This document shows, in pieces, positions 4,755-59,857 of a stretch of 64,000 bases of DNA; position 1 is the first letter of the stretch, and the number at the start of each line of letters is the position of its first letter. The DNA is from Bacillota bacterium (GTDB lineage Bacteria > Bacillota > Clostridia > Acetivibrionales > DTU013), in the NCBI GenBank assembly GCA_023435745.1, contig JAEZMD010000018.1, positions 344,090 through 408,089 on the forward strand, written 5' to 3'. Below the pieces are notes generated by a model that searched no databases, was not told the DNA's origin, and saw only the letters and a program-made list of their open reading frames with translations. Made by a program: the position numbers and the translations under genes.

Positions 4755-4798
4755 GGTCGCGGGTTATGCCTGCGGCCTTTATTTATTCCTGAAAGGCC
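4755..4798 (+). promoter_or_regulatory. Alternative hairpins A and B (anti-antiterminator and antiterminator candidates)
   Basis: Hairpin A pairs GGTCGCGGG (4755-4763) with CCTGCGGCC (4769-4777), including two G-U pairs. Hairpin B pairs GGCCTTT (4774-4780) with AAAGGCC (4792-4798). B shares bases with both A and the terminator stem. Confidence 0.4.
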
Positions 4799-4833
4799 GA
4801 GGCGTGTATTCTTCGGCCTTTTGTTTGTGTTTG
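4792..4833 (+). terminator. Rho-independent terminator/attenuator upstream of the ABC genes
   Basis: A perfect 9-bp stem, AAAGGCCGA (4792-4800) with TCGGCCTTT (4813-4821), is followed by TTTGTTTGTGTTT. Confidence 0.6.
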
Positions 4834-8946: not shown

Positions 8947-9684
8947 ATGGGCTTTTATGAACAGATAGCACCTTACTACGATTATATCTTTCCTGCGGGA
9001 GATGAGCAGCTTAAATTTTTACAAAAAGCGGCGGGTCTCCCGCCGAAAAAAATACTGGATGTAGCCTGCGGATCCGGCGTATATTCGGTCAAGCTGGCAC
9101 AACTCGGGTATAAAGTGTGGGCGACTGATATCGATGCCGAAATGGTGCGCCTTGCCGGACAAAAAGCAACCGATGGCATGTCCGAGATAAAAACATTTAT
9201 CTCGGACATGCAGCAACTGGATCAGCATATCAGCGAGCAGTTTGATTGCATTTTTTGTATAGGAAACTCAATTGTCCACATTGGCAGTGCTGACTCCATA
9301 TTATCCGCGGTTTTTCAGATGAAGAACCGGCTTGCACCTGGCGGAAAGCTTCTGCTGCAGATCATTAATTTTGACCGTGTTCTTGCTAAGGGAGTAACCT
9401 CATTGCCTACTATTTATAATCAGGAAATCAACCTTGAATTCCAGAGGAATTATCTCAGAGATGACGACAGGGGCTTGATTTATTTTGATACTGTCCTAAC
9501 TGTGAATGAGGATAACGGGCAGAACAGGTTTGAAAACAGAGTCGAGTTGTTCCCCTTATTAGCCTTATCACTAAAAGAAATATTGACCAAAGCCGGTTTT
9601 CGTTCAATTAACTTTTACGGCGGCTTCAATCAGGAGCCCTACATACCGGATGAATCGTTTCTGTTAGTGACAGAGGCGTTTTAA
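8947..9684 (+). CDS. Class I SAM-dependent methyltransferase
   Basis: Motif I is ILDVACGSGVYS, followed by an acidic loop (WATDID) and a Rossmann-like layout. Confidence 0.7.
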   Translation: MGFYEQIAPYYDYIFPAGDEQLKFLQKAAGLPPKKILDVACGSGVYSVKLAQLGYKVWATDIDAEMVRLAGQKATDGMSEIKTFISDMQQLDQHISEQFDCIFCIGNSIVHIGSADSILSAVFQMKNRLAPGGKLLLQIINFDRVLAKGVTSLPTIYNQEINLEFQRNYLRDDDRGLIYFDTVLTVNEDNGQNRFENRVELFPLLALSLKEILTKAGFRSINFYGGFNQEPYIPDESFLLVTEAF

Positions 9685-23115: not shown

Positions 23116-23496
23116 TTACGACAAAATTCTCAACTCTATATCATTTTTCAGCACTGATTTCAGCTCTTTCAGAAAGCGATCTTCTTTGCTTTTCAACCGC
23201 GATTTTCCAAGAATAATACAATGAATATGATTTTCATCTGCATATCGTGCAATGGTCCCTGGGATATCTTTAGATTTCAGCACAGCCAGATTTGCTCCGA
23301 TGCTTTTTGAAAGGCCGAAAAGATATTCCAGCGCTTCTGATTCCGTATTGCTGTCTAAAAAATTAACATCATCCTTAACGACGTTAATAACATACAAGTT
23401 TCCGTTGTAATTCTTCATTAGTTCATTGGCTGCACTAATCAAGCGCTCACAGGTTTTTTGCTGTGTGACGCATACAAGTATATTTTTCGTTTCCAC
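23116..23496 (-). CDS. Universal stress protein (USP/KdpD-Usp-like) domain protein
   Basis: ILVCVTQQKTCERLI...LYVINVV...IHCIILGKS shows the USP alpha/beta pattern. The GTG start follows AAAGAGG, and an extended -10 (TGGTATAAT) lies upstream on the minus strand. Confidence 0.6.
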   Translation of the reverse strand: METKNILVCVTQQKTCERLISAANELMKNYNGNLYVINVVKDDVNFLDSNTESEALEYLFGLSKSIGANLAVLKSKDIPGTIARYADENHIHCIILGKSRLKSKEDRFLKELKSVLKNDIELRILS

Positions 23497-23593
23497 AAAA
23501 ATGCCTCTTTTCGTTCCGTTTTCAAGAACCGTCCTATAAGTTATTATACCAAACAGGATTGTAAAAGTCTTAAGGCAACTTGTGAATTTTTAT

Positions 23594-23836
23594 TTTGCTG
23601 CAACAGGCCGGTCTAGCTCCGAAATCGGCTTGTCCATGCAGTATTACTGCCCAAGAACTGCATGAGTTGCAGCATGATTCACAACAGGGCATGCTGCAAT
23701 TTGTAAAATACCGATTGCACCAATGCATTTCAGTTCAAGGTTCCAATGCTGAAATGCCTCCCCTGCGAGTTTTGGGATCGTGGCTTGCAGGGGCAAGTCG
23801 TCTGTGATACTCTAATCGACTTGGTGCGGTGCAATC
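23594..23836 (+). ncRNA. Candidate structured RNA: five tandem stem-loops, three of them closed into a four-way junction (function unknown)
   Basis: Paired arms are as follows. H1: 23635-42 with 23657-64. H2: 23665-76 with 23690-701. P0: 23713-21 with 23828-36. H3: 23725-33 with 23749-57. H4: 23760-69 with 23784-93. H5: 23794-800 with 23817-23. There is no convincing ORF or RBS on either strand. The G-U pairs in H2 and H4 favour the plus strand. Confidence 0.3.
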
Positions 23837-23850
23837 AATTTTGTATGAAC

Positions 23851-23879
23851 TTGCATTTTATACATCCATCATTTATTAT
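23851..23879 (+). promoter_or_regulatory. Sigma-A-like promoter upstream of the fumarate hydratase genes
   Basis: TTGCAT (23851-56), a 17-nt spacer, then TATTAT (23874-79). Confidence 0.5.
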
Positions 23880-23932
23880 GATTACGTAGCAGTGAGCGGC
23901 ATATCAATCATCCGCTGCTATTGGAGGACAGA

Positions 23933-24775
23933 ATGAAGGAAATAAGCGTTTCAAAAATAACAGATGTGGTCGAGCAGCTTTGTATAAGTGCAAACTATGA
24001 TCTGAACAGCGATATCATGGAGGCTCTTGAAACGGGGACGCTTGCTGAGGAATCTCCGACTGGCCGGATAGTGCTTTCCCAGCTTGTTGAGAATGCCAGG
24101 GTTGCCGCCCGGGAGAGAATGGCCATATGTCAGGATACCGGTATGGCTGTGGTTTTCCTTGAATTGGGACAGGAGGTTCACATCGTAGGAGGAAGTCTGA
24201 CACAAGCTATTAACGAAGGGGTCAGACGCGGTTATGAAAAGGGATTTCTAAGGAAGTCCGTCGTATCCGATCCTCTTAAAAGAGTAAATACAGGTGATAA
24301 TACCCCGGCTGTAATCCATTGTGATATAACAGAGGGGGACAGCCTGAAGATAACGCTGGCGCCGAAAGGGTTCGGCAGTGAGAATATGAGCGGAGTAAGG
24401 ATGCTGAAGCCTTCGGACGGAGTGGAAGGGGTAAAAGCTTACATAGAAGAAATGGTTGACAAAGCCGGTTCGAATCCCTGTCCACCTGTCATTGTGGGAG
24501 TTGGGATTGGCGGTACAATGGAGAAGGCGGCGATCCTTGCAAAAAAGGCGTTGCTTCGTCCTGTTAACAGGCGCAATGCAGATGAGGAGCTTCGAAGACT
24601 TGAAGAGGAGCTGCTGACGCGTGTGAATCGTCTTGGAATCGGGCCTGCAGGTCTTGGCGGCAGACTTACCGCACTGGCAGTAAATATTGAGGTTTTTCCG
24701 ACACATATTGCCGGACTGCCAGTGGCGCTCAATATGGGCTGCCATGTCACCAGGCATGCGGAGGAAGTACTGTGA
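23933..24775 (+). CDS. Class I (Fe-S) fumarate hydratase / tartrate dehydratase family, alpha subunit
   Basis: Contains ICQDTGMAVVF, GFGSENMS and a CPP cluster ligand region. The ATG at 23933 follows GGAGGA. Confidence 0.85.
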   Translation: MKEISVSKITDVVEQLCISANYDLNSDIMEALETGTLAEESPTGRIVLSQLVENARVAARERMAICQDTGMAVVFLELGQEVHIVGGSLTQAINEGVRRGYEKGFLRKSVVSDPLKRVNTGDNTPAVIHCDITEGDSLKITLAPKGFGSENMSGVRMLKPSDGVEGVKAYIEEMVDKAGSNPCPPVIVGVGIGGTMEKAAILAKKALLRPVNRRNADEELRRLEEELLTRVNRLGIGPAGLGGRLTALAVNIEVFPTHIAGLPVALNMGCHVTRHAEEVL

Positions 24776-25708: not shown

Positions 25709-26983
<1,275 letters not shown>

Positions 26984-27053: not shown

Positions 27054-27091
27054 AAATGGTACTATTTATAAATAAATAGTACCATTTTTTT
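27054..27091 (+). terminator. purA terminator
   Basis: A near-perfect 16-nt palindrome, AAATGGTACTATTTAT paired with ATAAATAGTACCATTT, followed by a T7 run. Confidence 0.8.
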
Positions 27092-28867: not shown

Positions 28868-28943
28868 GGGCCATTAGCTCAGTTGGCAGAGCACTTGACT
28901 TTTAATCAAGGTGTCCCGCGTTCGAGTCGCGGATGGCTCACCA
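28868..28943 (+). tRNA. tRNA-Lys (anticodon UUU), CCA encoded
   Basis: Cloverleaf drawn by hand. Acceptor stem is GGGCCAT/ATGGCTC, D stem is GCTC/GAGC, and anticodon stem is CTTGA/TCAAG with loop CTTTTAA. T arm is CCGCG-TTCGAGT-CGCGG, ending in ACCA. Confidence 0.93.
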
Positions 28944-53588: not shown

Positions 53589-53610
53589 CATAATAAATAT
53601 TTGAAAAACG

Positions 53611-53867
53611 TTGATCGGGAGGAGTAAACAGACATCTGCCCCAAAGAGAGAGAAGCTCGCCGGCTGAGAGGCTTTTCGGGGATAAAGCTGTTGAAGGTCG
53701 CCCGGGAGTTCTGCGATAAATACGATGAAGCTTGGCTATGGATGCCCGGCGTACCGTACAACCGCAGCGGTAGGAGCCGTTATTTCTGCAGAGCAGCCCC
53801 GGGAGGGGAATTTTGGTGGTACCGCGGAGAACAGCCTTCGTCCAATGAGTTTGGATGAGGGCTTTTT
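53611..53867 (+). promoter_or_regulatory. T-box riboswitch leader, valine specifier (GUC)
   Basis: Has Stem I elements (GGAGTA, AGAGAG, GGCTGAGAG) and a candidate specifier, GAA-G-GTC-G, at 53697-99. The T-box sequence AATTTTGGTGGTACCGCGG lies at 53809-27. The terminator pairs GCCTTCGTCCAA with TTGGATGAGGGC and is followed by TTTTT (53833-67). Confidence 0.88.
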
Positions 53868-59779: not shown

Positions 59780-59857
59780 GGTGGACTTAGCTCAGTTGGT
59801 TAGAGCGCCAGGTTGTGGCCCTGGAGGTCGTGGGTTCGATTCCCATAGTTCACCCCA
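59780..59857 (+). tRNA. tRNA-His (anticodon GUG) with G-1 and encoded CCA
   Basis: G-1 at 59780 pairs with C73. The acceptor stem is GTGGACT/AGTTCAC, the anticodon stem is CCAGG/CCTGG with loop TTGTGGC, and the T arm is GTGGG-TTCGATT-CCCAT. Confidence 0.92.

Follow-up and report, generated by a model that had tools for sequence, protein, structure and literature searches.

The small mobile elements of bacteria known as MITEs have terminal inverted repeats (TIRs) and flanking direct repeats but no transposase, form very stable folds, and leave empty and filled sites among related genomes (PMC3184786). They are usually under 200 bp in length, and can reach about 400 bp. The window analysed here, the whole stretch of 64,000 nucleotides, contains a non-coding block of 246 bp (23591-23836) that is probably a copy of a MITE-type DNA transposable element, non-autonomous, gene-free and not previously catalogued. 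It sits in the spacer between usp and fumA, which extends from 23497 to 23932 and measures 436 nt, rather than the 424 bp given in an earlier note on this DNA.

Five inverted repeats, H1 to H5, had been described in this spacer, and a re-check of the sequence recovered all of them in place, together with the long-range helix P0 (23713-21 with 23828-36) and a second copy of TGCTGCAA. The inventory of stems was nevertheless incomplete, as it lacked a sixth hairpin (H0) and another closing helix (Table 1). The plus-strand RNA has a minimum free energy of -102.7 kcal/mol, with z = -5.8 against 200 dinucleotide shuffles, versus z = -3.4 for the minus-strand RNA of the same copy; single-stranded DNA parameters leave the structure unchanged (z = -5.3). 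Perfect hairpins, counted with a stem of at least 7 and a loop of 8-20, number five in 250 nt, whereas the 64-kb window as a whole would predict 0.24; this density is the window maximum (Poisson P of about 5e-6 per 250-nt frame).

Table 1. Positions, in the window, of the parts of the element and of the sequences flanking it
Feature	Positions	Strand	Remarks
Probable usp promoter region	23543..23590	-	TTCACA-17-TACAAT (23586-23558); block TTTGGTATAAT, reverse complement of 23543-53; putative function
Left target-site duplication copy	23585..23590		AATTTT; single copy at empty sites, both sides in window and L082
Left terminal inverted repeat	23591..23607	+	TATTTTGCTGCAACAGG; matches reverse complement of right end
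Left arm	23591..23712	+	closing helix, H0, H1 and H2; minimum-free-energy and consensus folds
Left closing helix	23591-98/23703-10	+	encloses H0-H1-H2, as P0 encloses H3-H4-H5
H0	23603-12/23624-33	+	sixth hairpin, from fold
H1	23635-42/23657-64	+	inverted repeat
H2	23665-76/23690-701	+	inverted repeat; core 23667-76/23690-99
Right arm	23713..23836	+	P0, H3, H4 and H5; inverted homologue of left arm
H3	23725-33/23749-57	+	inverted repeat
H4	23760-69/23784-93	+	inverted repeat, one G-T
H5	23794-800/23817-23	+	inverted repeat
Right terminal inverted repeat	23820..23836	-	reverse complement GATTGCACCGCACCAAG; comparison of ends
Right target-site duplication copy	23837..23842		AATTTT; both sides of insert in window and L082
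Probable fumA promoter	23851..23879	+	TTGCAT (23851-56), 17-nt spacer, TATTAT (23874-79); from sequence and conservation, putative function

The usp-fumA arrangement is kept in about 70 of 80 loci, and these include both filled and empty sites in close relatives, as is found for MITEs. The site is filled in the window and in three related loci. The element is identical to that of the window in L081 and about 95% identical at the nucleotide level in L082 (Usp 92%), whereas the copy in L001 (Usp 91-92%) has two internal deletions, 23648-23752 and 23765-23786, and has lost half of the structure. Empty sites are intact in L083 (Usp 87%), L085/L087 (82%) and L002 (77%), in which the uninterrupted sequence, TTGTKAAWTTT joined directly to GTATGAAC, contains a single copy of the 6-mer that is duplicated around the element. 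L084 (Usp 84%) likewise has no copy, its site bearing a small deletion, and none is present in about 65 further syntenic loci. The insertion appears to be confined to one shallow lineage, consisting of the window organism and two relatives with a Usp identity of about 92%, one copy being in decay. That the usp-fumA locus can do without the element is shown by the decay of the L001 copy.

A homologous copy was found in another setting, at positions 606-837 of L088, an unrelated metagenome contig, after the stop codon of a Glyco_tran_28_C (MurG-like) gene. This copy was reached via a protein-database search with a spurious ORF frame (match P0123), and it brings the independent insertion sites found to two, in two different organisms. 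Both are flanked by the target-site duplication characteristic of MITEs, the sequence of which differs by site: AATTTT in the window and L082, and ATAAAT in L088 (600-605 and 838-843). The boundaries of the element are identical; its start base is the same in both insertions, and the end ...GTGCAATC is common to the window, L082 and L088. The copies are small, as MITEs are, at 246 bp in the window, 244 bp in L082 and 232 bp in L088, with no transposase gene and no conserved ORF. The terminal inverted repeats are about 17 nt long (consensus GATTnnACTGCAACAAG), with agreement at 15/17 positions in L088 (GATTTTACTGCAACAAG versus GATTGCACTGCAACAAG) and at 10/17 in the window and L082.

The element is composed of two arms of about 120 bp each, and the reverse-complemented right arm aligns to the left arm along its full length, H5 corresponding to H0, H4 to H1, H3 to H2 and P0 to the left closing helix. 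A profile of the whole element also matches the opposite strand of L088 (E = 6e-7). The repeat core occurs at the borders of each arm as inverted copies of 8 bp (GATTnnAC ... GTnnAATC), and each single-stranded arm would, as a result, fold as a closed three-hairpin 'cloverleaf'. P0 and the four-way junction described in the earlier note derive from these same inverted copies. The note had also proposed a kissing interaction between the loops of H1 and H4. The complementarity is present in the sequence, but it is not conserved, being lost in L082, whereas another part of the loops is complementary in L088; it reflects residual homology of the two inverted arms. The kissing loop was dropped as a functional switch, since arm homology accounts for the complementarity, and so was the proposed alternative fold, for which arm homology and the resemblance of the terminal inverted repeat to the H2 stem account for the pairing. 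The two strands of the L088 copy fold nearly alike (z = -9.1 and -7.4), which is what a DNA palindrome predicts. A tRNA-like cloverleaf was rejected on the grounds that tRNA models do not recognise the element: ARAGORN reported no tRNA or tmRNA in 23400-24000, and the Rfam tRNA model matches only at 28868 and 59781.

The reading favoured in the earlier note was that of a cis-regulatory, riboswitch-like leader RNA of the Fe-S fumarate hydratase operon. The element does lie upstream of fumA on the same strand, has a high structure content, and follows a weak promoter-like match (9/12) at 23519-23547, but a leader function is highly improbable given the distribution of the element: orthologous spacers with a Usp identity of 87% or less are without it despite conserved synteny, half of the L001 copy is deleted, and a homologous copy stands beside unrelated genes. 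It also has no terminator or RBS-sequestering partner. The note had been unable to assign the block to any RNA family, and this is borne out for both the window and L088 copies by Rfam 15, which gives nothing at gathering score, only noise at E >= 1.4; the lack of an Rfam match is itself a point against a leader RNA. The position of the promoters points in the same direction. The probable fumA promoter lies downstream of the element, in a block (23843-23888) that is identical in L001 and has two differences in L082 (23865 and 23880), and a -35 sequence TTGC[AT]... with a -10 sequence TAT[AT][TC]AT recurs upstream of fumA in most close relatives. On the other side, the putative usp promoter scores 10/12 in a consensus scan, and ATTATACCAAA, AAAAGTCTTA and TTGTKAATTTT are conserved across relatives. 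The insertion splits a conserved direct-repeat box, TGTKAA-N5-TGTKAA. With the predicted fumA promoter downstream, the element would be upstream of both divergent promoters and not in a leader. The notion of a plus-strand RNA specific to this operon must be given up for a sequence that is absent from relatives' spacers, is flanked by a target-site duplication, has a copy elsewhere and is followed by a conserved candidate promoter. With a homologue in an unrelated context, the palindromes are essentially dispersed rather than locus-specific, an outcome that the earlier note had itself named as contrary to its reading.

The helices are conserved to a greater extent than the sequence between them. 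In the comparison of the window with L088, 84% of the paired columns are identical, versus 59% of the unpaired ones, plus 14 gap columns (Fisher p = 1e-4), and stems, but not loops, are kept in both L082 and L088. When six arms are compared, compensatory Watson-Crick changes are seen at 9/29 core pairs, and 166/174 cells are paired. For the three full copies, the paired cells make up 96%, and four pairs are altered on both sides, versus none at any slid register; covariation on these copies alone, with too few sequences, is not significant against shuffles (71/500). The helices of the earlier note have, thus, been retained in the diverged copy, with compensatory changes. One pair displays the full A-U / G-U / G-C series over L088, the window and L082. 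Wobble pairs in the core stems of the window copy, as read on the plus strand, are G-T in five cases and A-C in none (own count); this bias hints at a constraint on a single strand, the plus strand, albeit with few pairs and a structure derived from that same strand.

These observations would also suit a structured non-coding RNA gene on the plus strand, mobile or horizontally spread, with two cloverleaf-like domains and with loops carrying antisense- or guide-like specificity, a proposal that is compatible with DNA mobility. The better folding of the window plus strand, its G-T wobbles, the three-step series at one pair, the conserved stems with diverged loops and the compensatory changes between arms all speak for such a gene, and a precedent exists in the Bacillus cereus group, in which the mobile repeat bcr1 is transcribed and shows compensatory changes (PMC3184786). 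It is nonetheless unlikely. There is no sigma-70-like promoter inside the element and no intrinsic terminator after it, Rfam again provides no match, the L088 strands fold almost equally, half of the structure is lost in L001, and arm homology suffices for the loop complementarity. Template switching can, moreover, produce compensatory changes in DNA hairpins with no selection acting on an RNA (PMC8794818, PMC7202029). For a MITE-type element, the persistence of the stems would reflect a constraint on the element family, through pairing of the ends or palindrome correction during replication, and would not be due to a function for the fumarate hydratase operon.

We know of no need, on the part of a cut-and-paste transposase, for three distinct conserved hairpins per arm with loops of 11-16 nt. 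There is a slim chance that the family is more than a passive MITE and that the conserved double cloverleaf is a functional form, either a structured RNA or a single-stranded DNA intermediate. In the RNA version, the transposon would carry constant stems as a scaffold for varying loops of 11-16 nt, with a guide-like or antisense role, whereas in the DNA version the mobilising enzyme would recognise the folded ends of a single-stranded intermediate. If the latter were true, the element would represent a mode of transposition joining hairpin recognition with a true 6-bp target duplication.

Mobilisation as single-stranded DNA is also the essence of another proposal, that of an IS200/IS605-type derivative (PATE) or a REP/BIME cluster, moved by a Y1 (HUH) transposase that recognises subterminal hairpins. 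In the IS200/IS605 and REP/RAYT families, the insertion point lies 3' of a short, fixed motif and the target is not duplicated. An IS200/IS605/PATE origin was suggested by the likeness of H0 and H5, which have near-identical stems and lie subterminally, 12-13 nt from each end; the stability of the structure with single-stranded DNA parameters is consistent with it, and the plus-strand wobble bias suits a single-strand intermediate. Two different 6-mers (AATTTT and ATAAAT) are, however, each duplicated here, which argues against both the IS200/IS605 and the REP/BIME forms of this proposal, and the resemblance of H0 to H5 is that of corresponding parts of inverted arms rather than of direct repeats. 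The origin was dropped on the strength of these two points. The loops, at 11-16 nt, exceed the 3-5 nt typical of the hairpins of these families, no GTAG or CGTC tag is present, and no tnpA or tnpB is found nearby. Such an origin is, overall, very unlikely.

The possibility that the region encodes a small protein can be given almost no credence. The candidates are a 70-aa ORF on the plus strand (23595-23807) and a Cys-rich 52-aa ORF on the minus strand (23570-23728); the former has a counterpart in the L088 copy, P0123, which was called in the same frame, is equally long and is 48% identical, and the latter is of interest for its composition. The conserved residues fall on stems, however, and the L082 copy, although 95% identical, is out of frame owing to the loss of 1 nt. 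The copies lack homologous start codons, the L088 ATG being partly made of the flanking duplication, and a stop in L088 interrupts the minus-strand ORF. Neither is preceded by a Shine-Dalgarno sequence, no gene is called over the element in L081 or L082, and exact-sequence look-ups of the window pseudo-ORFs returned nothing. Reading frames are not preserved between copies, in agreement with the earlier description of the region as non-coding, and a SCIFF-like or other Cys-rich peptide was rejected for the same reason.

Searches for more members of the family yielded few copies. BLAST found no further copy in the 64-kb window, only 10-12-mers, and nhmmer, run with profiles of the single arms and of the complete element, recovered only the known copies from about 690 kb of related loci. 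A metagenome scan for a left-end pattern shared by the window and L001 gave 0 matches, and one for the H1-H2 stem pattern gave three, all of them chance matches in coding DNA; viral-contig scans produced 0 matches in three cases and 11 chance matches in a fourth. Blastn found nothing in a plasmid collection for the window or L088 copy, nor in a phage collection for the window copy. In the protein database, a profile built on the two pseudo-ORFs revealed no additional copies. Sequences resembling the terminal inverted repeats were not seen elsewhere in the window or related loci, and no autonomous IS or transposase with matching ends was found in the window, the related loci or the scanned collections.

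The events at this locus can be pictured as follows for a MITE-type element. A transposase acting in trans would have cut the A/T-rich spacer with a 6-bp stagger, at a point between the two back-to-back -35 regions, probably in the common ancestor of the window organism and its relatives at about 92%, and the insertion would have duplicated AATTTT and moved the usp and fumA promoters 252 bp apart. At this locus, the element has most likely become a passenger that no longer moves, and any influence on regulation would be no more than a side-effect. The insertion, which would part back-to-back promoters as well as splitting the direct-repeat box, provides a natural experiment, in that relatives with and without the element are comparable for usp/fumA expression. 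What had looked like an "orphan riboswitch" candidate ahead of an operon for Fe-S fumarate hydratase is, thus, probably mobile DNA. A palindromic transposable element alone can yield a multi-helix junction and covariation-like signals, and this calls for caution in the discovery of RNA motifs in metagenome-assembled genomes. The analysis also adds a MITE-like family, with defined ends, duplication length and arm structure, in uncultured Acetivibrionales-type Clostridia, unmatched in curated RNA families or the searched collections.

REP/BIME sequences and PATEs resemble this element in being intergenic clusters of hairpin palindromes, with hairpins near the element ends. They differ from it in having a fixed motif, no target duplication, and short, G+C-rich hairpins with small loops, rather than a variable 6-bp duplication and loops of 11-16 nt. 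The Correia/NEMIS elements of Neisseria and the BOX elements of pneumococcus are also intergenic mobile repeats, which alter spacing or transcript structure when near promoters, and BOX elements are modular arrays of stem-loop units (PMC3184786). These families have other hosts, sequences and duplications, and tens to hundreds of copies, versus the two loci found here. Another comparable repeat is bcr1, an interspersed Firmicute repeat of about 155 bp with short direct repeats and a patchy distribution between relatives, the cruciform-like fold of which consists of independent stem-loops kept by compensatory changes (PMC3184786). Copies of bcr1 repeatedly lose structure (PMC3184786), and the L001 copy decays likewise. 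The two differ in their direct repeats and folds (5 bp and two stem-loops in bcr1, 6 bp and 2 x 3 hairpins here), with no sequence similarity detected, and bcr1 is known to be transcribed. The MITEs Nezha of cyanobacteria, Chunjie of Geobacter and MITEAba12 share with this element a small, non-coding form, A/T targets, terminal inverted repeats and direct repeats, and, as here, were recognised by comparing occupied with empty sites among close relatives (PMC3184786; PMC10969869). The fold of Chunjie has a free energy of about -98 to -130 kcal/mol (PMC3184786; PMC10969869), a range that includes the -103 kcal/mol of this element. The present element is set apart by its 6-bp duplication, with no partner IS found in the searched sequences, and by its shape: most MITEs form one long hairpin from both ends, whereas this element forms two three-hairpin domains, because inverted copies of the repeat core border each arm individually.

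The inverted repeats that an earlier note had described in the spacer between the divergent usp and fumA (fumarate hydratase) genes are all present when the sequence is read directly. They belong to a 246-bp block, referred to here as the element, which is made up of hairpins H0–H5 and two long-range helices. The plus strand (23590-23850) folds at −102.7 kcal/mol (z = −5.8 relative to 200 shuffles that preserve dinucleotides) and the minus strand at −84.8 kcal/mol (z = −3.4), while DNA parameters give the same architecture (z = −5.3). The whole 64-kb window contains 61 perfect hairpins (stem of at least 7, loop of 8–20), five of which lie in one 250-nt frame at the element, the densest spot of the 64 kb, where 0.24 would be expected; the cluster is real and not due to chance.

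Features of the element, its flanks and the remainder of the window
Feature	Position	Strand	Remarks
Spo0A and HU genes			further left of usp
Usp-family gene	23116-23496	-	left of element
usp promoter-like TTCACA-17-TACAAT	23586-23558	-	10/12 consensus
Second long-range helix (left closing helix)	23591-98/23703-10	+	encloses H0-H1-H2, as P0 encloses H3-H4-H5; absent from earlier note
H0, sixth hairpin	23603-12/23624-33	+	from fold; absent from earlier note
P0	23713-21/23828-36	+	closes H3-H4-H5
Probable fumA promoter, TTGCAT, 17-nt spacer, TATTAT	23851-56, 23874-79	+	from consensus and conservation only
Class I fumarate hydratase alpha and beta subunit genes, then DUF1858 protein gene			right of element
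tRNA gene	28868-28940	+	Rfam RF00005, 66.5 bits
T-box leader	53602-53848	+	Rfam RF00230, 96.9 bits (gathering score 93)
tRNA gene	59781-59854	+	Rfam RF00005, 68 bits

A scan with the Usp protein, using one genome per species, yielded 80 loci, which come from uncultured Acetivibrionales, Hungateiclostridiaceae, Ruminiclostridium and related Clostridia. About 70 of these have usp and fumA side by side in divergent orientation, usually with a spacer of 165–300 nt, versus 436 nt in the window. Among the relatives' loci, L081 (a Logan assembly) has an element identical to that of the window, and L082 (Usp 92% identical to that of the window) has the whole element at about 95% identity. L001 (Usp 91–92%), which has flank variants in common with L082, bears a decaying copy in which H0, the left half of H1, a remnant of H4, H5 and the right end are all that is left; the counterparts of 23648-23752 and 23765-23786 are missing. 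The site is empty and uninterrupted in L083 (87%), L085–L087 (82%) and L002 (77%), in which CTTGTGAAATTT or CTTGTTAATTTT runs directly into GTATGAACTTGCA; L084 (84%) is without the element and has a small deletion at the site, and none of the more distant loci of the set contains it. The window reads CTTGTGAATTTT, then 23591-23836, then AATTTTGTATGAAC, and comparison with the empty sites thus indicates that the 246-bp block was added together with a second copy of AATTTT. The simplest history would be that the element inserted once, before the lineages of the window, L082 and L001 separated, and later decayed in L001. The earlier note had favoured a plus-strand RNA upstream of the Fe-S fumarate hydratase operon, but a conserved RNA specific to the fumA locus is contradicted by the absence of the element from spacers at Usp identities of 87% or less.

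No second copy was detected in the window by BLAST within the 64 kb, DNA scans of plasmid, phage and viral collections gained no copy, and two metagenome scans gave no family member. As a spurious ORF might have been called in another copy, the longest stop-free frame (23595-23804, plus strand) was translated and searched against 1.84 billion representative proteins. Two matches were to repeat proteins of low complexity. The third was to P0123, 70 aa long and annotated "hypothetical protein" (48% identity over the full length), which had been called on L088, a 982-bp contig of JGI metagenome 3300069939. Positions 606-837 of L088 are a clear homologue of the element in an unrelated context: they directly follow the stop codon of a Glyco_tran_28_C (MurG-like) gene. 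This copy is bounded as in the window, beginning with GATTTTACTGCAAC (window, TATTTTGCTGCAAC), ending with GCAGTGCAATC (window, GCGGTGCAATC) and flanked on both sides by ATAAAT (600-605, 838-843). The two insertions, at the only two independent sites known, have equal boundaries and 6-bp duplications differing in sequence; as read from the sequences, this is the signature of staggered-cut transposition, and it excludes families with a fixed motif and no duplication. In L088 (600-607), the insertion interrupts the stop codon of the MurG-like ORF: today's TGA combines the last T of the duplication with the first GA of the element, and the reconstructed empty site has TAA at the same position, so that the length of the ORF is unchanged.

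The element consists of two inverted arms. In all copies, the right arm, once reverse-complemented, can be aligned along the entire left arm, H5 corresponding to H0, H4 to H1, H3 to H2 and P0 to the left closing helix, and a full-element profile also matches the opposite strand of L088 (E = 6e-7). The terminal inverted repeats (TIRs) match at 15/17 positions in L088 and 10/17 in the window; each arm starts with GATTnnAC and ends with the inverted copy GTnnAATC, with central pairs of TT/AA (left arm) and GC/GC (right arm). These arm-bounding cores, together with the homology of the arms, account for three further proposals of the earlier note. The P0 helix of its four-way junction is present, and is explained as pairing of the terminal-repeat core with its internal inverted copy. 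The loops of its H1–H4 kissing interaction are inverted homologues, and their complementarity is not conserved, being lost in L082 and shifted within the loops in L088. The sequence behind its alternative fold, TGCTGCAA, sits within the left terminal repeat, overlaps the core and resembles the H2 stem. The minimum-free-energy fold of L088 pairs both termini together, and its two strands fold almost equally (z = −9.1 and −7.4), as is to be expected from palindromic DNA.

Between the window and L088, stem columns are 84% identical, versus 59% for unpaired columns, which have 14 further gap columns (Fisher p = 1e-4), a pattern indicating that within-hairpin pairing was kept while the loops drifted. 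Standard pairs make up 96.4% of the pair cells over the three full copies, and four pairs have changed on both sides (none at any slid register), but with three sequences only, the shuffle control was not significant (71/500). With the six arms taken as homologues, 166 of 174 cells are Watson-Crick and 9/29 core pairs show compensatory changes from one Watson-Crick pair to another; one pair series comprises A-T (L088), G-T (window) and G-C (L082). On comparative grounds, this shows that a constraint or a correcting mechanism acts on the element family. Kept pairing is no proof of an RNA, however, because palindromic DNA behaves alike on both strands, and because perfect stems can arise and persist through template switching at quasipalindromes, with no selection acting on a transcript (PMC8794818, PMC7202029). 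G-T pairs, the kind from which a plus-strand RNA had been argued, do occur (five, and no A-C pairs, on the plus strand of the window copy by our own count), but they are only a weak hint of plus-strand constraint, biased by the definition of the structure on that strand.

Rfam 15 gave no family match at the element, even at E ≤ 10 (elsewhere in the window, it found the T-box and two tRNAs), in agreement with the earlier note, which could match the region to no RNA family, and ARAGORN found nothing there. The region is also, as had been stated, non-coding. The 70-aa plus-strand frame was rejected as a gene, since its apparent conservation is due only to that of the stems and frames are broken in other copies: in L088 its start codon derives from the flanking duplication, and a 1-nt deletion in L082 shifts it after 24 residues. 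A Cys-rich minus-strand ORF, frameshifted in L082 and stopped in L088, was likewise rejected, and gene callers called nothing in the element of L081 or L082. Sequence scanning revealed no sigma-70-like promoter within the element and no intrinsic terminator after it.

The block GTATGAACTTGCATTTTATACATCCATCATTTATTATGATTACGTAG (23843-23888), downstream of the element, is unchanged in L001, nearly identical in L083 and L002, and different at two positions in L082, 23865 (A>G) and 23880 (A>T); most close relatives have a box similar to the probable fumA promoter 26–120 nt upstream of fumA. We infer that the element is located between two back-to-back promoters, upstream of both, which would place it outside the fumA leader and argues against a fumA leader RNA. 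Within 23543-23575, the block ATTATACCAAA (reverse complement TTTGGTATAAT) provides an extended -10-like motif for usp and, together with AAAAGTCTTA, which has no obvious promoter role, is the most conserved part of the spacer across roughly the 25 closest relatives. With the insertion, the distance between the two -35 regions grew from about 12 bp to about 264 bp. A dozen close relatives (L002, L005, L006, L008, L009, L011, L014, L016-L018, L021, L022) have a TGTKAA-N5-TGTKAA direct repeat at a fixed distance from a conserved AAGTCTT block; in the window (23580-23590, 23843-23850), L082 and L001, the element separates the two halves of this repeat. The repeat (e.g. TGTGAATTTTGTGTTAA), 16 nt from AAGTCTT and between the usp and fumA promoters, appears to resemble OmpR-family response-regulator sites (WalR/PhoP-type consensus). 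A regulatory side-effect of the insertion is possible.

The presumed fumA 5' UTR has a hairpin of its own (23888-23919; AGCAG(TGA)GCGG ... CCGCTGCT) immediately upstream of the GGAGG ribosome-binding site. L082, L001 and L083 retain this hairpin, whose place is taken in L002 by a different one (GGCGCTGACAGCGCC); it may serve mRNA stabilisation or regulation. Unrelated G+C-rich, hairpin-prone extra sequence (60-200 nt) is found in the usp-fumA spacer of other lineages, either in the stretch separating the direct-repeat box from the fumA -35 (L014, L016, L017) or between the usp start and the usp promoter blocks (L004, L007, L012); insertion or expansion appears to have recurred in this spacer. 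Elsewhere in the window, long perfect palindromes with 4-nt loops occur at 9176-9211 (16-bp stem) and 27054-27087 (15-bp stem; A/T-rich, about 70 nt after an adenylosuccinate synthetase-like ORF ending at 26983), and may be terminators or protein-binding sites. An overlapping hairpin pair at 4773-4821 with a common arm, AAAGGCCG (CGGCCTTT...AAAGGCCG...CGGCCTTT), looks like a bidirectional terminator arrangement.

Comparison of the loci demonstrates an insertion that has a 6-bp duplication and TIRs, carries no gene, exists in a second copy elsewhere and has decayed in one lineage. The element would have been mobilised by a transposase acting in trans and cutting A/T-rich targets with a 6-bp stagger; searches gave no partner IS, and the ends of the element alone give no family assignment. 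An IS200/IS605 or REP-type origin is ruled out by the duplication, the hairpins in inverted arms and the large loops. The element fits the published description of bacterial MITEs (PMC3184786, PMC10969869) in its size, lack of transposase, TIRs, duplication and filled/empty sites; several copies per genome and a cognate IS, as further criteria, would complete the match. Its "double cloverleaf" build of two sets of three hairpins with well-kept stems is unusual. In behaviour, the element comes closest to bcr1 of the Bacillus cereus group, a Firmicute repeat that has short direct repeats and independent stem-loops maintained through compensatory changes, and whose structure has decayed repeatedly (PMC3184786).
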